Of a stretch of 47,003 bases of DNA, positions 8,268 to 37,482 are shown piece after piece. The translations under genes were made by a program, and so were the position numbers. The notes beneath the pieces are model-generated. The model did not search any database. It was given only the letters and a program-made list of their open reading frames with translations, and was not told where the DNA came from. Source of the stretch: Patescibacteria group bacterium (lineage in GTDB: Bacteria; Patescibacteriota; Minisyncoccia; Phycocordibacterales; Phycocordibacteraceae). The stretch spans positions 1-47,003 of the forward strand of contig JAGWWK010000001.1 of NCBI GenBank assembly GCA_018970425.1. Reading direction: 5' to 3'. Position 1 is the stretch's first letter. Each line of letters begins with the position of its first letter.

Positions 8268-8312
8268 AGTATATCAGGATCGCGCTCCGCAGTTTCATAA
8301 CATGGCTCAGTC

Positions 8313-8321
8313 TGGTATACT
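8313..8321 (+). promoter_or_regulatory. Extended -10-like box tggTATACT, 9 nt upstream of tRNA-Lys position +1
   Basis: tatact 8316-8321, tRNA starts at 8331. Confidence 0.5.
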
Positions 8322-8330
8322 CGGGTCGTA

Positions 8331-8403
8331 CCGCCCATAGCTCAGCTGGTAGAGCACTCGCCTCTTAAGCGATTGGTCCTTGGTTCGAATCCAAGTGGGC
8401 GGA
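8331..8403 (+). tRNA. tRNA-Lys (anticodon CUU)
   Basis: ccgccca/tgggcgg acceptor, D arm gctcagctggtagagc, anticodon loop ctcttaa, T arm cttggttcgaatccaag. Confidence 0.9.
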
Positions 8404-8410
8404 CTTGATC

Positions 8411-8436
8411 AAAAACCCCATCTGCTTGGGGTTTTT
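8411..8436 (+). terminator. Rho-independent terminator-like hairpin after tRNA-Lys
   Basis: aaaaacccca-tctgc-ttggggttttt. Confidence 0.6.
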
Positions 8437-8444
8437 GTATACAA

Positions 8445-8550
8445 GTCCGAGGCGGAGCGCTGTTTTGCGTCTCGCAAAACCGCGAGCCGGGGTCGCGAAA
8501 CCGACGAACGCAGGTGAGGAGGTATTTGTGACGACGCGTCCGAGGCGGAG
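8445..8550 (+). repeat. tRNA 3'-flank module (E-family, Lys/Leu subtype) bounded by 13-nt direct repeats gtccgaggcggag
   Basis: Direct repeats at 8445-8457 and 8538-8550 (aagtccgaggcgga loosely resembles the tRNA-Lys 3' end aagtgggcgga). Inside are hairpin gttttgcg-tct-cgcaaaac, ggggtcgcgaaacc, and a loop gacgaacgcaggtga related to GAACGAAGGTGA of the other modules. Confidence 0.5.
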
Positions 8551-8585
8551 GCAGGCCGAAGCAGAGTGTGGTAAAACTAACGTAC

Positions 8586-8670
8586 GCCGGGATGATGGAA
8601 TGGTAGACATAGGGGACTTAAAATCCCCAGGCTCTAATCGGCCGTGTGGGTTCGAGTCCCACTCCCGGCA
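8586..8670 (+). tRNA. tRNA-Leu (anticodon UAA), long variable arm, uninterrupted
   Basis: gccggga...gggga-cttaaaa-tcccc...gtgggttcgagtcccac-tcccggc-a. Confidence 0.9.
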
Positions 8671-8722
8671 CTATGAACATTGAGGCCCGACCATGCGTCG
8701 GGTTGGTCATGTGCGCTGTCAC

Positions 8723-9385
8723 TTACTGCCCACCTTTGACGCCGATTGACAGGCGAGTCGCGCCGTAAATCGCTAAGAGCGACATTCCGATGCCGAGCGG
8801 GAGCGTAAGCCACCACGCGCCACTCACAATAACTTCTCCAAACAAAACATAGAGCGCTGCAATCGGTGCGTGTACCGCACTATGGACTGCAATAAAGTAC
8901 AGGTACGGAATACGCGTCAGCCCCGCCGCGTACGCGAAAAGGTCCATGAATCCTGCAAAGTATACACGGGCTCGAGCAAAGCGTCGTTTGTCCGATAGCT
9001 CGATGAGTACGGCATCAATTGTCGGCGCCTGCGATGCGGAGGTGAAAAAACGAAGAATGGAACGACCAAAGCGTCGGCTCAAGAAAAAGGCAATCGTCGA
9101 GCCAAGCGCGTCGCCGAGGAGTGTGAGCCCGAGGCCGGGGAAGAAGCCATACGCCGCGCCTGCGATAGGGTAGATGATGGTTCCGCCCAAGGGAGCAACT
9201 ACGATGGTTGTGGCTTTCAAGATGACGACAAGGACTACGGCGTACCATCCAGCGCTCGCGACTGCCGCGCGTAACGCATCGATTCCAATGTACGTACTAA
9301 CCGCGTAGGCAAGACCAAGCGCGGCACCCAGTAGAGCAAGACTTGTGAGAGCCTCTCGGAGCGAGGGTTTTTGTGATGTTTGCAT
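8723..9385 (-). CDS. TVP38/TMEM64 (DedA-related, SNARE-associated) family membrane protein
   Basis: VAPLGGTIIYPIAGAAYGFFPGLGLTLLGDALGSTIAFFLSRRFGR is the signature region of this family. Confidence 0.7.
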   Translation of the reverse strand: MQTSQKPSLREALTSLALLGAALGLAYAVSTYIGIDALRAAVASAGWYAVVLVVILKATTIVVAPLGGTIIYPIAGAAYGFFPGLGLTLLGDALGSTIAFFLSRRFGRSILRFFTSASQAPTIDAVLIELSDKRRFARARVYFAGFMDLFAYAAGLTRIPYLYFIAVHSAVHAPIAALYVLFGEVIVSGAWWLTLPLGIGMSLLAIYGATRLSIGVKGGQ

Positions 9386-9388
9386 TTG

Positions 9389-9460
9389 AGGCCTGAGAGG
9401 GACTCGAACCCTCGCATAGCGGTTTTGCAGACCGCCGTGTTACCTCTTCACCATCAGGCC
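9389..9460 (-). tRNA. tRNA-Cys (anticodon GCA)
   Basis: Reverse complement ggcctgatggtgaagaggtaacacggcggtctgcaaaaccgc...gagggttcgagtccctctcaggcct. Confidence 0.9.
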
Positions 9461-12981: not shown

Positions 12982-13036
12982 TGCAGACTTGCTTTTTTAA
13001 ACATGTGTAGTATAAGTATTTTAATTAAGGGGTGGT

Positions 13037-14033
13037 CTCCGATACCATCAACTAGGACACTCGGTTAGCTAATAATACCTCCTCTGCCGTTTGAAACCCC
13101 AGACACTGTCTGGGTGTTTTATTAAGAAGTCGGTCGATTTCTATAAGTTGTGCAGTGGTCACCAATCTCAGATCTGATCGTTTCGGTACGATGGTACGTA
13201 TCCAGCGATTCGTGTTCTCGACCAACCCCTTCTCCCACGAACAATACGGAGAGGCGAAATAGAATGGTACTGACAGAGACAGCTCAAGAAGCTGCCACTT
13301 CTGGAATACGATGTCGTTGTCTGTGGTGATGGTCAGAAGCTGATGCTTCTGTTTGATACGACCAAGCTCACGGAGTACGGCATGGTGGGTCTTCCGATAC
13401 AGCTTCCGTACCAGTGCATACCTGGTCCACCGATCCACAAGCACCAACAAGACCACCGGTGACTGTCTCGACACAATGAAATCAAGTTCCCAGTGTCCTG
13501 AGGTACGGACATGAGGTCGAGAAGCAATGAGCTTCTTGGCCGTATCTGAGGGAAGTCGTGTCCCTCGCTTTCGTCCTCTCTTCTGGTGGTGTCTCTCCCA
13601 GAAGAGGTACTGCTCTAATGCACGACTTCGTACATACCGGTATATCGCTTTCTGCGTGATGGGCATGGCGGTTCGTCTCGCATATCCTGCAATACGCTCA
13701 GGTGACCATCCCAAGACCAACTTCTCTCGGACCAATTGCGTCAGCTCGGGACTCAGTGCCACCTTCATGCAGTTCTGCTTGGACCTCCAGCGCCTCACAT
13801 AGGTCTTGTGGTGTGCTTTCCGTGAGCGATACACCCCACAGACCATCTTTTCCCGCACCTCCTTGGAGACCGTATTCACACTACGACCCAGTGACAGAGC
13901 GATAGACCTGAGACTCAATCCACGCCTCCTCAGCGTCTCAATCGAGACGCGTTCCTCATAGGTTAACTGCTGATAGGTGGTTCCTTTTCTCATCACTCCA
14001 GTGTACGGAGTGTCCTAGTGCAAAGTATCGGGG
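13037..14033 (-). mobile_element. IS30-family insertion sequence (~1.0 kb) with imperfect 26-bp terminal inverted repeats
   Basis: Left end ctccgataccatcaactaggacactc (13037-13062) matches the reverse complement of gagtgtcctagtgcaaagtatcgggg (14008-14033) at 21/26 positions. It encloses a single transposase ORF and looks lower in GC than the flanks. Confidence 0.8.
13052..13996 (-). CDS. IS30-family DDE transposase
   Basis: N-terminal HTH (LTYEERVSIETLRRRGLSLRSIALSLGRSVNTVSKEV), then the catalytic core (WELDFI ... TTDND ... SWEKGLVENTNRWIR). Confidence 0.9.
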   Translation of the reverse strand: MMRKGTTYQQLTYEERVSIETLRRRGLSLRSIALSLGRSVNTVSKEVREKMVCGVYRSRKAHHKTYVRRWRSKQNCMKVALSPELTQLVREKLVLGWSPERIAGYARRTAMPITQKAIYRYVRSRALEQYLFWERHHQKRGRKRGTRLPSDTAKKLIASRPHVRTSGHWELDFIVSRQSPVVLLVLVDRWTRYALVRKLYRKTHHAVLRELGRIKQKHQLLTITTDNDIVFQKWQLLELSLSVPFYFASPYCSWEKGLVENTNRWIRTIVPKRSDLRLVTTAQLIEIDRLLNKTPRQCLGFQTAEEVLLANRVS

Positions 14034-14053
14034 AGGGGTAATAGTTACTTTGT

Positions 14054-18138: not shown

Positions 18139-18215
18139 CCGAGAGAGGGTCGTAGACAACTCGCTTGTATACGACCGAACGAGACGCGCGGGCAAGGCTT
18201 CCTTACCCGGCGCAC
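18129..18215 (+). repeat. Short tRNA 3'-flank module (E-family) bounded by 11-nt direct repeats of the tRNA-Tyr 3' end
   Basis: acccggcgcac at 18129-18139 (inside the tRNA) and 18205-18215. Between them are hairpin ggtcgta-N13-tacgacc and gaacgagacgcgcgggcaag, which resembles the cgcgggcgag end of the Trp/Val modules. Confidence 0.5.
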
Positions 18216-18301: not shown

Positions 18302-18457
18302 ATGTCGCAAGATAATCTTCTGAGACTCAAGTCGCCGTCGGGAACGATGGTTTATACTCGCAAGAACAAGAAAAAGCTTGCGAACGTCAAGCTCTCTCTC
18401 AAAAAGTTTGATAAAAAGTTGAGAAAACGTGCTGTCTTTAAAGAGGTCAAAAAGTAA
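18302..18457 (+). CDS. rpmG: 50S ribosomal protein L33 (51 aa; below the ORF-track cutoff)
   Basis: Hand translation: MSQDNLLRLKSPSGTMVYTRKNKKKLANVKLSLKKFDKKLRKRAVFKEVKK. It matches the L33 pattern (YxTxKNKR...L.LKKFDP..R.H..FKE.K). Confidence 0.8.
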   Translation: MSQDNLLRLKSPSGTMVYTRKNKKKLANVKLSLKKFDKKLRKRAVFKEVKK

Positions 18458-18463
18458 GGCATA

Positions 18464-18485
18464 ATGACCCCATCGGGGTCATTTT
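18464..18485 (+). terminator. Rho-independent terminator after rpmG
   Basis: atgacccc-atc-ggggtcat followed by tttt. Confidence 0.7.
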
Positions 18486-18495
18486 GATTACCGAA

Positions 18496-18641
18496 GGGCC
18501 TATAAGCAAAGCTTCTAGGCCCGGCACTCGGACGCCATAAGTGCAAGCACTCGCGGCGCTCCTCGTTAGGGCCTATAAGCAAAGCTTCTAGGCCCGTCAC
18601 TCGGACACCATGAGTGCAAGCACTCGCGGCGCTCCTCGTTA
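18496..18641 (+). repeat. Two tandem 73-nt tRNA 5'-flank modules (U-family): tRNA-Trp acceptor-stem minihelix mimic plus conserved 45-nt hairpin
   Basis: Units 18496-18568 and 18569-18641 are 70/73 identical. Each begins gggcctata (the first 9 nt of tRNA-Trp) and folds gggccta-t-aagc-aaa-gctt-c-taggccc-g. Then follows ctcggacgcc..gagtgcaagcactc..ggcgctcc. Confidence 0.85.
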
Positions 18642-18712
18642 GGGCCTATAGTTCAATGGTAGAACGACGGTCTCCAAAACCGTTAATCCAGGTTCGAGTC
18701 CTGGTGGGCCCG
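18642..18712 (+). tRNA. tRNA-Trp (anticodon CCA)
   Basis: gggccta/tgggccc acceptor, anticodon loop ctccaaa, T arm ccaggttcgagtcctgg, discriminator G. Confidence 0.9.
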
Positions 18713-18973
18713 CAGATGCGAAGCATCGAGAGGACTCGAACGCTGAGCGGTGCGAGTCGCTGCGACGAGCCGCGAAGCGGTGCCCAGCAGGTACCCGAAC
18801 GAAGGTGAGGGAACCTGCGCGGGCGAGGACTACGTGGGCTCCGAGATGCGAAGCATCGAGAGGACTCGAACGCTGAGCGGTGCGAGTCGCTGCGACGAGC
18901 CGCGAAGCGGTGCCCAGCAGGTACCCGAACGAAGGTGAGGGAACCTGCGCGGGCGAGTCCTGGTGGGCCCGCA
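18699..18973 (+). repeat. Two identical 113-nt tRNA 3'-flank modules (E-family) in tandem (130-nt period), interleaved with copies of the tRNA-Trp 3' end
   Basis: E copies at 18715-18827 and 18845-18957 are identical. tcctggtgggcccgca occurs at 18699-18714 (in the tRNA) and 18958-18973; a degenerate copy gactacgtgggctccga lies at 18828-18844. Confidence 0.85.
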
Positions 18974-19024
18974 GTACGTTGAGAAACTCGGACGGCTCTT
19001 TTTTCTGGTGTACACTTTTTATAT

Positions 19025-21683: not shown

Positions 21684-21875
21684 GTGCCGGGAGAGAGACT
21701 CGGTCACAACTCGAATACTCACCTTCGTTCGTATTCGGTCGCGACCCCAGCTCGGGCACGCTCGAGACGAGCGGCATAGCGCCCTCCGCTTTTCTCGTCT
21801 CATTCCGGCAATGACAAAGCAAAACCGAAGCAGTGCTTCGGTATTTGATAGTCATAGTGCCGGGAGAGAGACTCG
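21684..21875 (-). repeat. tRNA 3'-flank module (E-family, Lys/Leu subtype, 154 nt) bounded by 19-nt direct repeats of the tRNA-Leu(CAA) 3' end
   Basis: gtgccgggagagagactcg at 21684-21702 and 21857-21875. On the tRNA strand the insert contains gcgtgcccgag, ggggtcgcgacc and hairpin gaatac-GAACGAAGGTGA-gtattc (plus-strand 21713-21736). Confidence 0.75.
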
Positions 21876-34198: not shown

Positions 34199-34262
34199 AA
34201 AGTTCCAATATCAACTATGGTAGCAAAAAATAACCCTTATAAACACTGGACAAAATGTGTTG

Positions 34263-34335
34263 TGGACCCTGCCGGATTCGAACCGGCGACCTCCTCATTG
34301 CAAATGAGGCGCTCTACCAACTAAGCTAAGGGCCC
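34263..34335 (-). tRNA. tRNA-Ala (anticodon UGC), G3:U70 present
   Basis: Reverse complement gggcccttagcttagttggtagagcgcctcatttgcaatgaggaggtcgccggttcgaatccggcagggtcca. Confidence 0.9.
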
Positions 34336-34408
34336 GAGTGAGGAGCGCCGCGAGTGCTTGCACTCATGGCGTCCGAGCGATGGACCCGCACTGTTTCAGT
34401 TTGGGCCT
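34336..34408 (-). repeat. Single 73-nt tRNA 5'-flank module (U-family, Ala type) abutting tRNA-Ala(UGC)
   Basis: The reverse complement is 72/73 identical to the units at 36741-36886 (aggcccaaactgaaacagtgcgggtcca + tcgctcggacgccatgagtgcaagcactcgcggcgctcctcactc). Confidence 0.85.
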
Positions 34409-34416
34409 TCGCTCGC

Positions 34417-34887
34417 TTATGCTAGCACAAATACGAGTGCTGGGACAAGAATACCAATAAGCGCCCCAATAAGGACCTGCATTCGCGTATGACAGCGTAT
34501 ATGGACTCGCGCAGCGCCTACAAGGACTGCGAGTACGGCGGCACCTCCTGCTACGGGAAGTGCATACTCACTGGGGACGGTATACAGGGCGAGTGGAGCC
34601 AAAAACCATGCAAAGGCGCTGTGTCCTGATGGAAACGCTCCCAGTGAGAGGCCGTGAGCTCTTTCACCGTTCGGTCGTGTGCGCCGTGTGAGTACTTTGA
34701 GGAACGCAATTGCGACACCCAGGGCCGCGAGCGAGATGAGTATTCGAAACCCCGCTTCGGGATCGCCGTTCAGTGCGATGTACGTCGCGTACGCTGCAAC
34801 AATAGGCGCAAAACGAATCGGTGTGAAAAGTGAAGTTGCATGCGCCAGGCGCGTTACAAAAGGTAGTGCCATGGGCACATGATACAC
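34417..34887 (-). CDS. PAP2-family phosphatase (membrane)
   Basis: KVLTRRTRP, PSGHS, and RVHIRCHTRMQ, corresponding to the three PAP2 motifs. Confidence 0.7.
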   Translation of the reverse strand: MYHVPMALPFVTRLAHATSLFTPIRFAPIVAAYATYIALNGDPEAGFRILISLAALGVAIAFLKVLTRRTRPNGERAHGLSLGAFPSGHSAFAWFLAPLALYTVPSEYALPVAGGAAVLAVLVGAARVHIRCHTRMQVLIGALIGILVPALVFVLA

Positions 34888-34895
34888 TTCAAAAC

Positions 34896-35288
34896 ATGTT
34901 CGCTCTGAGCGCTTTTCTGACGAGTGTCATGATTATAGTATTGGTTGATTATGCATGGTATTCACTTACGCGGAAGCATTTTTACGGCGTGATCAGCGGG
35001 CTTAAAGATCGCGTCGGACTACCAGGCCTCGTGAGTGCGTACGCCGCGCTAATAGCCGGACTCTTATTTTATGCGACGCTTCCTGCGCTCGCGGGAGGGA
35101 GCGTTTGGTACGCGCTTGTCCTGGGCGCCTTATATGGAGTTGTTGTATACGGTATCCATGCCGGGGCAGGGTATGCGCTCATGCGAGGTGTACCATTGCG
35201 GGTTGCAGTCGCCGAGTTTGCGCACGGAGTAATCCTCATGAGTTTGGCGTGTATGTTCGCGTATCTCGTTGGAAGCGCGCTAGTTTAA
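34896..35288 (+). CDS. DUF2177-like integral membrane protein
   Basis: ORF 34830 trimmed to ATG 34896, which lies 7 nt downstream of a tgaTACACT box. Four hydrophobic helices. Confidence 0.5.
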   Translation: MFALSAFLTSVMIIVLVDYAWYSLTRKHFYGVISGLKDRVGLPGLVSAYAALIAGLLFYATLPALAGGSVWYALVLGALYGVVVYGIHAGAGYALMRGVPLRVAVAEFAHGVILMSLACMFAYLVGSALV

Positions 35289-35306
35289 AATACAGCGCTC
35301 ATGCGC

Positions 35307-35312
35307 TAGAAT
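35307..35312 (+). promoter_or_regulatory. -10-like hexamer TAGAAT, 8 nt upstream of tRNA-Val +1
   Basis: tagaat 35307-35312, tRNA starts at 35321. Confidence 0.4.
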
Positions 35313-35320
35313 AGCCACAC

Positions 35321-35397
35321 GGGCGGCTAGCTCAGCTGGTTAGAGCGCACGCTTCACACGCGTGAGGTCACAGGTTCGATTCCTGTGCTGCCCACCA
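35321..35397 (+). tRNA. tRNA-Val (anticodon CAC), CCA encoded
   Basis: gggcggc/gctgccc acceptor, anticodon loop ttcacac, T arm acaggttcgattcctgt. Confidence 0.9.
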
Positions 35398-35601
35398 AGT
35401 ATCGCCTGATACTTGGGGCAGCAGCACGCACTGCGTGCGGCAGGAATCGAACGCCGGAGCGATGTGTGATGTTTCATCACACCGCGAGGCGGTGCCCAGG
35501 CCAAGTCCGACCGAAGGGGAGGACGAGAGCCGCGGGCGACTTCCTGTGCTGCCCACCAAGTATCGCCTGATACTTGGGGCAGCAGCACGCACTGCGTGCG
35601 G
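35380..35601 (+). repeat. tRNA 3'-flank module (E-family, 100 nt) bounded by 61-nt direct repeats (last 18 nt of tRNA-Val plus a 43-nt two-hairpin trailer)
   Basis: Direct repeats at 35380-35440 and 35541-35601 are identical. The insert 35441-35540 shares cgaacgc-gagcg, ccgcgaggcggtgcccag, hairpin gtcc-GACCGAAGGGGA-ggac and cgcgggcgac with the Trp module. Confidence 0.85.
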
Positions 35602-35752
35602 TTTGGGGAGAATTTCTTGGTCGGGCCGTAAGCACTTCGTGCTTTCTTCCAGCGCTCGCTCGGAAATATAAAAAAATTTCTATTTCCCTCGCTCGCTCGG
35701 AAGTAGTACAGTAGTACGTGCGGTTTGGGGAGAATTTCTTGGTCGGGCCGTA
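35596..35752 (+). repeat. 35-nt direct repeat (26-nt leader plus the first 9 nt of tRNA-Pro) with a 122-nt period
   Basis: gtgcggtttggggagaatttcttggtcgggccgta at 35596-35630 and 35718-35752. The first copy continues into hairpin agcac-ttc-gtgct and an AT-rich inverted repeat ggaaata..tatttcc. Confidence 0.8.
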
Positions 35753-35817
35753 GTATACCGGTAGTACGTGCGCTTCGGGTGCGTAAAGACTGGGTTCGAT
35801 TCCCAGCGGCCCGACCA
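35744..35817 (+). tRNA. tRNA-Pro (anticodon CGG), CCA encoded
   Basis: cgggccg/cggcccg acceptor, anticodon loop ttcgggt, T arm ctgggttcgattcccag. Confidence 0.9.
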
Positions 35818-35977
35818 AGAAATGCTCCGAGTGTCTGGTAGACACTCGTGGTCGCAGTGCGAGTAAAGACTGGGTTCGATTCCCAGCGGCCCGACCAAGA
35901 AATGCTCCGAGTGTCTGGTAGACACTCGTGGTCGCAGTGCGAGTAAAGACTGGGTTCGATTCCCAGCGGCCCCACCA
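35818..35977 (+). repeat. Two tandem 80-nt units: a 46-nt hairpin spacer plus a copy of the 3' 34 nt of tRNA-Pro(CGG), from the variable region to CCA
   Basis: Units at 35818-35897 and 35898-35977. The spacer agaaatgctccgagtgtctggtagacactcgtggtcgcagtgcgag contains an 8-bp hairpin cgagtgtc/gacactcg. The last copy has cggccccacca instead of cggcccgacca. Confidence 0.85.
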
Positions 35978-36010
35978 AAATGCTATTTTCTAGCTAGAAG
36001 ACAAGCGTCC

Positions 36011-36146
36011 GTCCCATCGTTTCGGGAAGGATTCACGCCAGCGTGGTATCCTCTCCCTACACTCGGGCCGTAAGCCTGGCTTCCGTCCCATCGTTCCGGG
36101 AAGGATTCACGCCAGCGTGGTATCCTCTCCCTACACTCGGGCCGTA
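36011..36146 (+). repeat. 62-nt direct repeat (74-nt period) containing a -10-like box, a leader, and the first 9 nt of tRNA-Pro(GGG)
   Basis: gtcccatcgtt(t/c)cgggaaggattcacgccagcgtggtatcctctccctacactcgggccgta at 36011-36072 and 36085-36146 (61/62 identical). tggtatcct boxes at 36044-36052 and 36118-36126. Confidence 0.85.
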
Positions 36147-36208
36147 GTATACCGGTAGTACGCATGCATGGGGTGCATGTAGACCGGGTTCGATTCCCGG
36201 CGGCCCGA
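36138..36208 (+). tRNA. tRNA-Pro (anticodon GGG)
   Basis: cgggccg/cggcccg acceptor, anticodon loop atggggt, T arm ccgggttcgattcccgg. Confidence 0.9.
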
Positions 36209-36233
36209 CAAATATGCTACAAATGAGTGTACT

Positions 36234-36307
36234 GGGCCTATAGTCTAGTGGTACGATGCAGCATTCGCATTGCTGAGGCGCGAGTTCGATTCTCGCTAGG
36301 TCCACCA
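36234..36307 (+). tRNA. tRNA-Ala (anticodon CGC), G3:U70, CCA encoded
   Basis: gggccta/taggtcc acceptor, anticodon loop ttcgcat, T arm gcgagttcgattctcgc. Confidence 0.88.
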
Positions 36308-36332
36308 GTTGTACTGCGGTGCTACACTCTTC

Positions 36333-36404
36333 GCTCTTGTCGTTCAACGGATAGGACACCTCCCTCCGAAGGAGGAGATGACGGTTCGATTCCGTCCGAG
36401 AGCA
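36333..36404 (+). tRNA. tRNA-Arg (anticodon CCG)
   Basis: gctcttg/cgagagc acceptor, D arm gttcaacggataggac, anticodon loop ctccgaa, T arm gacggttcgattccgtc. Confidence 0.88.
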
Positions 36405-36435
36405 CTCTTTTAACTTCGCTACTCGAGTAGTAAGC

Positions 36436-36606
36436 TCAGTTTGCAATCTGCCCGGTAGCAAAAAGTATTGCTGCAACGATTAAAGCAACTCCTAATGCCA
36501 TTTTTTTAACGGTTAGAGGCGTGTTCCAATTTTCGCGCTTGGGTCCGTCTTCCCAGTCGTCGTCACTTGGGCGCCTGTCTTGAAATGTGATTGTTTCAAA
36601 TTTCAT
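36436..36606 (-). CDS. Small hypothetical tail-anchored membrane protein (56 aa; below the ORF-track cutoff)
   Basis: Hand translation: MKFETITFQDRRPSDDDWEDGPKRENWNTPLTVKKMALGVALIVAAILFATGQIAN. Confidence 0.35.
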   Translation of the reverse strand: MKFETITFQDRRPSDDDWEDGPKRENWNTPLTVKKMALGVALIVAAILFATGQIAN

Positions 36607-36702
36607 GATGCTTCTGTTATACGCCTGTTTTTTCTGCGCGCAAGTGCAGTAGGAGGATTATGCTTGTTGCCACCTCGCACTGCACTCGTAGTACTTCTCT
36701 AG

Positions 36703-36711
36703 TGGTATCCT
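36703..36711 (+). promoter_or_regulatory. Extended -10-like box tggTATCCT upstream of the U-module array and tRNA-Ala(GGC)
   Basis: tatcct 36706-36711; the same box occurs inside the tRNA-Pro(GGG) upstream repeats. Confidence 0.45.
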
Positions 36712-36740
36712 AGTGACGGGCGATAGCGACATCCTCACTC

Positions 36741-36886
36741 GGGCCCAAACTGAAACAGTGCGGGTCCATCGCTCGGACGCCATGAGTGCAAGCACTCGCG
36801 GCGCTCCTCACTCGGGCCCAAACTGAAACAGTGCGGGTCCATCGCTCGGACGCCATGAGTGCAAGCACTCGCGGCGCTCCTCACTC
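36741..36886 (+). repeat. Two identical tandem 73-nt tRNA 5'-flank modules (U-family, Ala type): tRNA-Ala acceptor minihelix mimic (G3:U70 kept) plus conserved 45-nt hairpin
   Basis: Units at 36741-36813 and 36814-36886: gggccc-aaa-ctg-aaa-cag-tgc-gggtcc-a, then tcgctcggacgccatgagtgcaagcactcgcggcgctcctcactc. They abut tRNA-Ala(GGC). Confidence 0.88.
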
Positions 36887-36962
36887 GGGCCCTTAGCTTA
36901 GCTGGTAGAGCGCTTCCATGGCATGGAAGAGGTCAGGAGTTCGAGTCTCCTAGGGTCCACCA
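36887..36962 (+). tRNA. tRNA-Ala (anticodon GGC), G3:U70, CCA encoded
   Basis: gggccct/agggtcc acceptor, anticodon loop atggcat, T arm aggagttcgagtctcct. Confidence 0.9.
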
Positions 36963-37005
36963 AAGTTTATTTACAGAGGAATTAGCCTCGCTCGGTATTG
37001 AAGAC

Positions 37006-37482
37006 GTGCTTATTGCGTTTGCAATAGGTGGCATAACCGCTGCTATGTACAGCGTAGTGTCTCCGGTGCGCGAGCGCCTCGAGCGCAGCGGCATAGGGGT
37101 GCTTCTTGCTTGTGCATATGGTATTGGTATCGTGATTCTATACGGCGGTTTTTATCTGCTTAACTTGTCATCAGTATTAGTCGCATTTGTGACACTCGCC
37201 GTTTTTGCTTTTGTGCCGCTCATAATTAAGCCCTGGGATCTTAAGGGAGCACTGCTGACCGGACTCATGTTTGGTGGGTTTTTATTCTTTTTTGAAATGG
37301 TGTTTTTCCTAGCATACCCGGGGATCGTTGACGCATGGTGGTTTGGTGCCACATGGGGGCGGGTACTAGGGGTACCTTATGAGGAAATCATATGGGGATT
37401 CTTGTGGGGGGTCGCGGGCGCATCAGGAACCGAGCTTGTGCTGCGATTGAGATTGCGCCGTCTACCGAGGGCTACTACTTAG
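37006..37482 (+). CDS. Hypothetical polytopic membrane protein (start uncertain: GTG 37006 or ATG 37045)
   Basis: ORF 36859 trimmed because its 5' part overlaps the U modules and tRNA-Ala. Five or six hydrophobic helices. The GVPYEEIIWGFLWG motif is faintly lycopene-cyclase-domain-like. Confidence 0.45.
   Translation: MLIAFAIGGITAAMYSVVSPVRERLERSGIGVLLACAYGIGIVILYGGFYLLNLSSVLVAFVTLAVFAFVPLIIKPWDLKGALLTGLMFGGFLFFFEMVFFLAYPGIVDAWWFGATWGRVLGVPYEEIIWGFLWGVAGASGTELVLRLRLRRLPRATT

Follow-up and report, generated by a model that had tools for sequence, protein, structure and literature searches.

Two-hairpin modules with tRNA-matched arms at the 5′ ends of tRNA genes in a Patescibacteria chromosome

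Two-hairpin units abut two tRNA-Ala genes

The window analysed here, a stretch of 47,003 nucleotides from a Patescibacteria group bacterium, is a piece of bacterial chromosome that encodes GyrA, ClpB, TopA, RelA, a short IF-2 and ATP synthase. Its best named relatives by AtpA and ClpB are Candidatus Kaiserbacteria / Paceibacteria (Patescibacteria). Two of its tRNA genes, tRNA-Ala(UGC) (34262/3-34335, minus strand; ARAGORN and Rfam tRNA, 74.3 bits) and tRNA-Ala(GGC) (36887-36962, plus strand; ARAGORN and Rfam), are directly preceded by 73-nt units of the same type. Base +1 of tRNA-Ala(UGC) adjoins a single unit (34336-34408, minus strand), and tRNA-Ala(GGC) directly follows two identical units arranged in tandem (36741-36813 and 36814-36886, plus strand).

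A scan of the window with the 73-mer GGGCCCAAACTGAAACAGTGCGGGTCCATCGCTCGGACGCCATGAGTGCAAGCACTCGCGGCGCTCCTCACTC identified these three occurrences at up to 3 mismatches, where 100 dinucleotide-preserving shuffles give an expectation of 0. Both plus-strand units match without mismatch, and the minus-strand unit is identical to them at 72/73 positions, the sole change being A instead of G at the first base, as the preliminary description of this DNA had reported. Each of the three units stops at the last base before a tRNA-Ala gene or before the following unit. Perfect inverted identity between the two loci extends over 78 nt (34330-34407 versus 36742-36819), and the blocks of module plus tRNA form a 162-nt inverted repeat of 85% identity.

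Alignment of the gene starts agrees with the earlier claim that the UGC and GGC isoacceptors have a common acceptor 5′ strand: both genes begin with GGGCCCT, share their first 15 nt and are identical at 26 of the first 27. A third gene, tRNA-Ala(CGC) at 36234, lies 24 nt after tRNA-Pro(GGG), starts with GGGCCTA and, as had also been noted, lacks the module. The preliminary description had inferred that the module tracks tRNA-Ala genes. This holds to the extent that every Ala-type copy abuts a tRNA-Ala, but the module is not Ala-specific, with further units present at Trp, Leu, Pro and Cys genes. What the statement really means is that the Ala-type module tracks the acceptor 5′ strand GGGCCC, and tRNA-Ala(CGC) is without it because that gene starts with GGGCCTA.

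The same description had proposed counting the 73-mer beyond this stretch of DNA. In the metagenome of the source sample we find three Ala-type copies, each abutting tRNA-Ala genes. In that sample the 73-mer is seen only next to the flanks of Ala(UGC) and Ala(GGC), at a single tandem junction and in two Trp-type units. Depth over the shared core is ~3.6x that of single-copy sequence, which fits three Ala-type copies, and a 45-nt contig spanning the tandem junction is present at single-copy depth, so there is exactly one Ala tandem junction. The source sample thus holds five copies of the module, all at tRNA 5′ ends.

The 73-nt Ala unit folds into two hairpins, hp1 and LH, with a folding energy of -35.1 kcal/mol (z = -4.4; the copy at 34336-34408 gives -31.1 kcal/mol, z = -3.9). 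From its 5′ end, the module opens with the initial 6-9 nt of its cognate tRNA. A cap follows, in which a stem of 4 bp carries an AAR triloop, and after it come the bases complementary to that tRNA segment with one more base added, a pyrimidine link of 5-6 nt, the 33-nt hairpin LH with its bulged C and CNAG tetraloop, and a 6-nt tail that separates LH from tRNA +1. The tRNA gene downstream remains intact, and the ~64-67-nt insert holds no ORF. In the Ala units hp1 covers nt 1-28 (36741-36768 in the first plus-strand unit, 34408-34381 in the minus-strand unit), the link has 6 nt (36769-36774; 34380-34375), LH covers nt 35-67 (36775-36807; 34374-34342) and the tail follows (36808-36813; 34341-34336). 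LH of the Ala unit is built from 3 bp, the bulged C, 4 bp, a 1x1 loop, 6 bp and a CAAG loop.

Ala hp1 has GGGCCC and GGGUCC arms, topped by a 4-bp stem with an AAA loop and followed by A. Read on tRNA-Ala, these elements correspond to G1-C72, G2-C71, G3-U70, C4-G69, C5-G68, C6-G67 and the discriminator A73. The G3:U70 pair is the established identity pair for alanine. In its predicted fold, Ala hp1 is thus a copy of the acceptor stem that carries the alanine identity pair. The hp1 helix, at ~12 bp, has the length of the acceptor/T-arm stack of a tRNA.

Evidence for the second hairpin comes from nine LH sequences of four sequence types. In this set 96.6% of cells are paired and 8 of the 13 pairs have changes on both sides, a level of covariation reached by none of 500 shuffles, and sliding the register lowers pairing to 33-58%. 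In the orthologous Trp module of locus L017 alone, two pairs are cleanly compensated (C-G to U-A and U-A to C-G). What stays constant is the CNAG loop and the G-C pair that closes it, together with the bulged C and a 6-nt tail, TCNNYN, before +1. LH is a maintained structure. Whether it acts as RNA or as single-stranded DNA is not distinguished by comparing sense and antisense folding energies, whereas for hp1 the tRNA strand gives the slightly more stable fold in 7/8 cases.

The sequence upstream suggests that the Ala modules are transcribed. An extended -10-like motif, TGGTAYNNT, occurs 26 times in the window against 5.7 expected (4.6-fold), mostly 7-12 nt before gene starts. One such promoter-like motif, TGGTATTCT (34448-34456, minus strand), lies 40 nt upstream of the Ala(UGC) module and another, TGGTATCCT (36703-36711, plus strand), precedes the first Ala(GGC) module by 30 nt; a scan with the standard sigma-70 consensus detected only the tRNA-Val promoter. 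Because promoter-like motifs lie upstream, the module is expected within the pre-tRNA leader, and we infer that the Ala modules would be transcribed there and cut off by RNase P. There are no RNA data on the module: no Ala module was found in RNA runs, and in the two runs that have words in common with the window, coverage is confined to tRNA bodies or to the region that begins at the tRNA-Pro(CGG) repeats and reaches the first bases of tRNA-Pro(GGG).

A family of modules whose arms follow the local tRNA

Related modules precede other tRNA genes in the window. Two Trp-type units (18496-18568 and 18569-18641, plus strand), which differ from each other at 3 positions, form a tandem repeat of 73 nt and 2.1 copies (18496-18641) directly before tRNA-Trp (18642-18713, plus strand; ARAGORN and Rfam). 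Their hp1 reads GGGCCTA-TAAGCAAAGCTTC-TAGGCCC-G, the Trp acceptor stem with its discriminator, and their LH is that of the Ala units. Before tRNA-Pro(GGG) are two 74-nt units of another kind, termed leader2 (35990-36137, plus strand), in which the tRNA 5′ strand CGGGCCG is followed by TA, a cap hairpin, a decayed 3′ arm and a bulged hairpin. This last hairpin differs in sequence from LH and contains TGGTATCCT. The leader2 architecture is related to the module layout, though the LH model scores this type only weakly (14 bits for the homologue in locus L005).

We scanned public collections with an LH 20-mer, which returned 2 matches in genome contigs and 6 in metagenome contigs. Five of these eight are true modules; three match by chance and share no similarity in their flanks. 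The true modules are 72-73 nt long, stop at tRNA +1 and precede tRNA-Leu(UAA) (L002), tRNA-Leu(CAA) (L003), tRNA-Pro(UGG) (L005 and L007, one sequence in two contigs) and a tRNA that is cut by the contig end and cannot be identified (L006). Loci for Tyr, Trp, Cys and Leu tRNAs were additionally retrieved with ClpB as anchor. Among these, L017 has a Trp module and a Cys module, L019 has a leader consisting of LH only at tRNA-Cys, and L023 has a Leu(UAG) module. The composite insert in L023, which lies between a CCGCCC repeat and tRNA-Lys, consists of hp1, LH and a truncated tRNA-like fragment. The cap is common to the modules of Trp, Pro and Leu genes and the L006 module.

Searches elsewhere gave no further members. 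Anchoring on DUF2268 and AtpA revealed no orthologous tRNA-Ala(UGC), synteny being lost beyond a strain of 99% identity, and phage records, plasmids and viral contigs contained no module match. Across the whole window, tRNA is the only Rfam covariance model to reach its gathering score, with no family for the module or the neighbouring 3′ modules, and permissive Rfam scans of 34200-37100 and 18380-19020 returned nothing credible for the module. Literature searches found no description of it.

The position of the module is strict. When the LH covariance model was searched against the window and 20 loci (297 kb), each of the 15 matches of at least 55 bits stopped at position -1 relative to a tRNA, the next hp1 or a tRNA-like 5′ fragment (the truncated one in L023); the match in the minus-strand Ala unit covers 34336-34379 and scores 67.9 bits. 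The specificity for tRNA ends proposed in the preliminary description would have been refuted by copies unrelated to tRNA genes, and there are none among the genuine copies in public collections and ~300 kb of related loci.

The arms of hp1 are observed to match the tRNA that follows. In 7/7 parsed modules the cognate tRNA ranks first among 46 tRNAs in its match to hp1, with 12-14 of 14 arm positions matching the cognate tRNA and a median of 5-8 for other tRNAs; the Cys module of L017 reaches 12/14 only after its 3′ arm is shifted by one base by hand. The match is imperfect in places, with arm mismatches in 4/9 modules and a discriminator base that agrees with the cognate tRNA in only 3/7. When modules of different tRNAs are compared, the arms differ at 8-10 of 14 positions, whereas 0-2 of 34 positions change in the LH core and 1-4 of 13 in the cap. 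The Leu module of L002 and the Pro module of L005, for example, differ at 9/14 arm positions versus 3/59 elsewhere (Fisher p = 4e-6), and the contrast between arms and LH reaches p values down to 1e-6.

Such a contrast is not what gradual co-evolution would be expected to give. The arms instead appear to have been replaced as blocks that match the local tRNA: because the cassette precedes different tRNAs and its arms are always local, they would have been re-templated from the target and not evolved base by base. For the 3′ arm, the two candidate templates, the 5′ arm of the module and the tRNA 3′ strand, find support in different modules. In Trp hp1 the 3′ arm is a perfect complement of the 5′ arm, with U6-A67 where tRNA-Trp has a U6-G67 wobble, whereas in Ala hp1 the 3′ arm retains the G3-U70 of the tRNA 3′ strand.

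Distribution among relatives and possible origin

Modules are sporadic among related genomes and vary in copy number. Relative to the window, IF-2 is 78% identical in L024, 70% in L017, 67% in L019, 63% in L018, 61% in L002 and 60% in L023. At tRNA-Trp, the window has two units and the freshwater strain X4 has one, its contig skipping exactly 73 nt (18539 to 18613); L024 and L018 have none and L017 has a single diverged unit. L024, the closest relative, has a tRNA-Trp that is 100% identical and no module. The tRNA-Ala(GGC) of L014 likewise has no module, and the Cys and Leu(UAA) genes that lie 20 nt apart in L018 have a module between them in L002. Copies at Cys, Leu and Pro genes were each found in single genomes only. 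Because the module is absent at the identical tRNA-Trp of L024 and at tRNA-Ala(GGC) and tRNA-Trp of the L014/L018 genome, we regard it as dispensable.

Sequence similarity between modules follows a different pattern. The Trp module of L017 differs from that of the window at 8/45 positions in link, LH and tail and has another cap, and its hp1, GGGCGAA...ATCGCCC, fits its own tRNA-Trp (GGGCGAT/ATCGCCC). The LH of L002, in contrast, is identical to the Ala LH of the window at 44/44 positions between genomes with 61% IF-2 identity and shared tRNAs that are 67-84% identical. Module similarity thus follows neither locus orthology nor genome distance, and the type-1 cassette is younger than the genomes.

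These observations lead us to a reading to which we assign a probability of roughly 50%: a small, non-coding, non-autonomous and dispensable module that is spreading at tRNA 5′ ends in Kaiserbacteria-like Patescibacteria. The preliminary description had left two options, a dispersing element or a selected leader module. The analysis supports this pair of options and narrows it towards dispersal, which is now favoured because the module is patchy in close relatives, its LH is identical at 61% IF-2 identity and its similarity departs from orthology. From this distribution we infer that new copies would arise at tRNA 5′ ends and that arrays would lengthen and shorten by whole units. The cap and LH would move as a cassette that recurs before different tRNAs in distant genomes, with arms that match the local tRNA each time. 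A mechanism dedicated to mobility, rather than general recombination, is likewise an inference. Single-strand recombination that recognises structure would be the most likely route, since the tail followed by the 5′ arm mimics a leader followed by a tRNA 5′ end; this is conjecture, and no enzyme has been identified.

The evidence for such a mechanism has gaps. No transposase, integrase, reverse transcriptase or HUH gene adjoins any copy examined, and no HUH/Y1 gene was found in the loci examined. Within the window, an IS30-family gene (13052-13996) is the sole transposase, and its inverted repeats are unrelated. The number of copies in the source genome, five, is low, and the module has neither terminal inverted repeats nor direct repeats of one fixed length. 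We found neither an excised form nor a clean pair of empty and filled sites, the flanks of empty sites in relatives being too diverged to define boundaries. The identity of LH between genomes could also be explained if naturally competent cells took up DNA and recombined it, with no dedicated mobility.

For the locus under study, the Ala(UGC) copy is a recent sister of the two Ala(GGC) units. Its placement may have been possible through the common gene start GGGCCC(TTAGCTTAG), and the AGGCCC upstream of tRNA-Ala(UGC) would then be the gene's old GGGCCC with one later change. Either an insertion made by the element itself or recombination between the inverted, 85%-identical blocks may have produced the copy, and the sequence cannot tell these apart. 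A low-coverage contig of run X9 leads from the GGC-side flank through a unit into tRNA-Ala(UGC). Such a join is what an inversion by recombination between the blocks would produce, but an assembler passing through the 78-nt repeat could have made it as well.

Selection by the host is the alternative that survives best, and we consider it possible though doubtful. The module would be a pre-tRNA leader cassette in which LH and hp1 act in cis on processing or folding, or in which a tRNA-sized hp1+LH RNA or minihelix acts in trans; it would be inherited vertically and homogenised by gene conversion, with the Ala(UGC) copy as a conversion product. The LH covariation, the conserved CNAG loop and bulged C, the fixed 6-nt tail that sets the distance to the RNase P site, and the G3:U70 and A73 retained in an hp1 of acceptor/T-stack length would fit a host function equally well, and the position downstream of promoter-like motifs and the LH-only leader at the tRNA-Cys of L019 add to this. 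RNase P RNAs of the Candidate Phyla Radiation are atypical, two thirds being without the CCA-binding UGG motif (PMC8172020), and a processing role of the module therefore stays possible. A selected leader is nevertheless hard to reconcile with its absence from an identical tRNA-Trp in L024 and from the tRNA-Ala(GGC) and tRNA-Trp of the L014/L018 genome, and with its restriction to ~3-4 of the 14 tRNAs of the window. Nor does vertical descent predict an LH that shows 100% identity between genomes with tRNAs of 67-85% identity and that has nonetheless diverged at the orthologous Trp locus, and the mismatches in hp1 look as if the modules were decaying.

A fuller version of the dispersal reading would treat the module as a selfish element, an idea that we regard as speculative and rather unlikely. 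The target-recognition hairpin would be written from the invaded tRNA or tRNA gene. The element, a unit of ~73 nt that may travel in the form of a folded single strand and whose junction would imitate a leader joined to a tRNA 5′ end, would insert harmlessly at +1 and be re-templated for each tRNA. Its transcript would yield cognate minihelices (with G3:U70 and A73 for Ala), cut by RNase P and maybe bound or charged by the synthetase.

It is more improbable that the modules are neutral scars of recombination at tRNA genes, left by partial tandem duplication, ectopic repair or breaks made, for example, by homing endonucleases, with hairpins that are incidental or that neutralise the duplicated 5′ strand. 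Several observations fit this reading: the cluster at 35380-36146 is full of partial tRNA duplications of both ends, copy number shifts by whole units, L023 has its composite insert before tRNA-Lys, genes of the LAGLIDADG, HNH and GIY-YIG types neighbour tRNA genes in L018, L023 and L024, and the contig of run X9 links the two inverted Ala blocks. Scars would, however, not be expected to place one cap and one LH architecture before ten different tRNAs, nor to produce 13 pairs with compensation, a constant length of 72-74 nt and a junction exactly at +1, and the hp1 interior is unlike tRNA interiors, with no match to the Rfam tRNA model. An assembly artefact, in the form of a repeat-induced chimera or a duplicated graph path of the metagenome assembly, can be dismissed for practical purposes: the region is indeed full of repeats exceeding common k-mer sizes and Logan contigs break at module borders, but both flank-module junctions recur in Logan contigs from independent soil, freshwater and aquaculture metagenomes, contig L009 of a 99%-identical strain reaches into the module beside tRNA-Ala(UGC) before it stops, the shared-core depth agrees with three copies, and homologous modules are present in unrelated public contigs (NCBI, JGI, ENA).

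Comparison with known repeat elements

Among bacterial repeats, REP/BIME and MITE families resemble the module in being short, structured and dispersed between genes and in that they can be transcribed with neighbouring genes. The module differs in its strict placement at tRNA 5′ ends and in having a part that is rewritten for each target. By the features that define the class, the module is not a MITE: terminal inverted repeats are lacking, and no target-site duplication of one length is seen. The module ends are not inverted copies of each other (left TAAGCAAAGC... or AAACTG..., right ...GCTCCTCGTTC). The direct repeats have no fixed length, measuring 6 nt at tRNA-Ala(UGC), 9 nt at tRNA-Trp, 10-11 nt in L003 and L006, 14 nt in L005 and 15 nt at tRNA-Ala(GGC), and consist of tRNA nt 1-9 plus variable leader matches. 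LH is an imperfect palindrome as in REP/BIME, families that are defined also by a conserved head tetranucleotide, tens to hundreds of extragenic copies and a RAYT gene, but there are only five copies in the source and no GTAG-type head, and by these features the module is not a REP.

Repeated pieces of tRNA genes offer a second comparison. E. coli tyrT has 178-bp repeats that contain the tRNA 3′ end downstream. Integrating elements also create tRNA gene fragments (PMC9897764), and in both cases, as here, a short tRNA piece is repeated beside an intact, functional gene. Those systems involve 3′ parts and kilobase-sized elements with an integrase, whereas the module is geneless and carries the complement of the repeat. 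The module is thus not a tRNA fragment left by an integrative element, since the repeat is the 6-9 nt of the tRNA 5′ end instead of a 3′ part and no integrase is present. We also rejected a tRNA pseudogene or decayed tandem copy, as the units have no Rfam tRNA match even at E up to 5. A group I intron P1 or guide sequence, or an archaeal-type intron after nt 6-9, is excluded by the lack of an intron core and by the duplicated 5′ strand that excision would leave. For LH as an integron attC-like site, the bulge and structural conservation are suggestive, but there is no integrase and a GTTRRRY-like match occurs in the Trp units only.

Minihelices and microhelices are substrates of AlaRS, RNase P and the CCA-adding enzyme. 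Ala hp1 resembles the tRNA-Ala minihelix and microhelix that Francklyn and Schimmel are said to have described in 1989, as it is an acceptor helix with G3:U70 and A73 of about the length of the acceptor/T stack. It differs in that the module has no T loop and no encoded CCA, A73 being followed by TCGCTC and LH, and there is no evidence for release or charging.

Two mobile systems also pair with their targets. IS200/IS605 elements use guide-target pairing at their ends and make no target repeat. The retroviral primer-binding site is recopied from the tRNA primer and matches the tRNA 3′ end over 18 nt. The likeness, which is one of resemblance only, is that an internal segment is complementary to the sequence next to the insertion and changes with the target; for the module, it is the acceptor 5′ strand that is matched, and no transposase or reverse transcriptase was found.

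The nearest analogues, in structure and distribution, are the hairpin elements of mitochondrial genomes. The GC clusters of yeast mitochondria are mobile hairpin repeats, of which GC42 has the target AG (PMC4478555). To the extent that they are described in the work citing them (PMC4478555), the double-hairpin elements of Allomyces (Paquin et al. 2000) and the GC-rich palindromes flanking Neurospora mitochondrial tRNA genes (Yin, Heckman and RajBhandary 1981) belong to the same comparison. Like the module, such elements are non-coding and tens of nt long, have one or two hairpins whose structure is kept, are sporadic in close relatives, form tandem arrays, lie near tRNA genes and have no associated transposase and no resolved mechanism. 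Compensated pairs, sporadic presence and tandem arrays, the criteria for hairpin elements, are met by the module; the likeness is structural and we claim no sequence homology. The mitochondrial elements belong to organelle genomes and have short fixed targets and no tRNA-matched segment, whereas the module has a hairpin of the cognate acceptor stem, a junction that is always tRNA +1 and a place in a bacterial chromosome.

The modules also have consequences for genomes of this group. They are an unexpected component of pre-tRNA leaders in the Candidate Phyla Radiation and, together with the neighbouring 3′-side modules, they break assemblies at tRNA genes. Such modules also give rise to false tRNA calls, one example being the 'tRNA-Ala(cgc)' placed by ARAGORN at 35823-35897.

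It is forty years since small hairpin repeats beside mitochondrial tRNA genes became known, and they still have no mechanism. The bacterial family has a readable clue in its cognate hairpin, and a hairpin matched to the target makes both target choice and copying testable. The module is apparently an undescribed variant of small hairpin repeat elements, and what sets it apart from them is an acceptor-stem mimic matched to its target.

A module family on the 3' side of tRNA genes

The window contains a second module family, positioned 3' of tRNA genes and built of units of roughly 100-130 nt. We identified modules after tRNA-Val (35441-35540), after tRNA-Lys (approximately 8445-8537), after tRNA-Leu(CAA) on the minus strand (approximately 21690-21856) and at tRNA-Tyr (approximately 18141-18214), as well as two units after tRNA-Trp (18716-18956). 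Modules of this kind also follow Trp, Tyr, Leu and Lys genes in four loci of related genomes (L017, L018, L019 and L024). Each module opens with the cognate T-arm copied in antisense (AGGAATCGAAC in the case of Val, for example, and AGGACTCGAAC in that of Trp), continues through GGAGCG, a hairpin, CGCGAGGCGGTGCCCAG and a second hairpin containing CGAAGG.GAG, and terminates in 11-61 nt of the tRNA 3' end, present as a direct repeat. The 3'-side modules had no match in Rfam. In metagenome run X8, the 161-nt insert at tRNA-Val is missing together with its repeat, and the 3'-side module is thus polymorphic, too.

Repeats and junctions near tRNA-Pro and tRNA-Ala genes

On the 5' side of tRNA-Pro(CGG), a 36-nt direct repeat containing CGGGCCGTA occupies 35595-35752, its copies separated by an 86-nt insert. 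Within this insert are a hairpin (AAGCACTTCGTGCTT) resembling the cap, the 4-bp stem with triloop that closes the acceptor-stem mimic of the 5' modules (73-nt two-hairpin blocks directly before tRNA genes), an AT-rich hairpin between CTCGCTCGG repeats, and nt 7-36 of tRNA-Pro in degenerate form. In metagenome run X6, a more abundant relative has just 11 nt between the two tRNA-Pro genes. An 80-nt tandem of 2.5 copies (35783-35978) encompasses the tRNA-Ala(CGC) called by ARAGORN at 35823-35897, which we reject as a chimera that combines trailer sequence with the tRNA-Pro(CGG) 3' half repeated here. The Rfam tRNA model reported no tRNA at 35823-35897.

A 339-nt contig from metagenome run X9 (34407/36741 in window numbering; depth 4.6x) runs from the flank upstream of the tRNA-Ala(GGC) units through one unit into tRNA-Ala(UGC), which lies on the opposite strand. 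This contig has two possible origins: the 2.4-kb tRNA cluster enclosed by the two inverted blocks is itself inverted, or the assembler followed a path through the 78-nt repeat.

A promoter-like motif

TGGTAYNNT occurs 26 times in the whole window against 5.7 expected, a 4.6-fold enrichment (examples at 1063, 14426, 15276, 18003, 18287, 20972, 21970 and 36703), and is usually situated 7-12 nt ahead of start codons or the tRNA +1 position. This enrichment and placement suggest that the motif marks extended -10 promoters and that many transcripts are leaderless or nearly so.

tRNA-end duplications and selfish elements

A composite insert upstream of tRNA-Lys in locus L023 (1460-1620, minus strand), bounded by a CCGCCC repeat on one side and tRNA-Lys on the other, contains a hairpin with arms matching GCTGGAG, a leader hairpin (60 bits) similar to the type of the window's Ala and Trp units, a truncated tRNA-like fragment, GCTGGAGTAGAGCAG, and a T-run. 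The arrangement gives the impression that a module, along with the beginning of a different tRNA gene, was inserted into the tRNA-Lys 5' end. Locus L014 (GCA_038106525.1) carries at 1-100, upstream of tRNA-Ala(GGC), a 47-nt tandem repeat that includes a tRNA 3' end (CCTGCCGAGAGCAC); tRNA-end duplication thus also occurs in a genome without the 5' modules examined.

One compared record, L002, is titled uncultured Candidatus Saccharibacteria. It shares the order IF-2, RbfA, tRNA-Cys with the Kaiserbacteria-like window, and the two IF-2 sequences are 61% identical. The Saccharibacteria label may stem from an error in binning or taxonomy.

The window itself contains an IS30-family insertion sequence (13036-14034), in which 30-nt inverted repeats bound a minus-strand transposase gene with HTH_38 and rve domains (13052-13996). 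This element is unrelated to the tRNA modules. In relatives, free-standing homing-endonuclease-type genes (GIY-YIG, HNH and LAGLIDADG) directly adjoin tRNA-Lys, tRNA-Leu and tRNA-Cys, at a site syntenic to window positions 8300-9460 (L018, 5001-5369; L023, 3168-3704 and 3867-4595; L024, 1818-2555). In this lineage, selfish elements, and possibly double-strand breaks as well, seem to have hot spots at tRNA genes.
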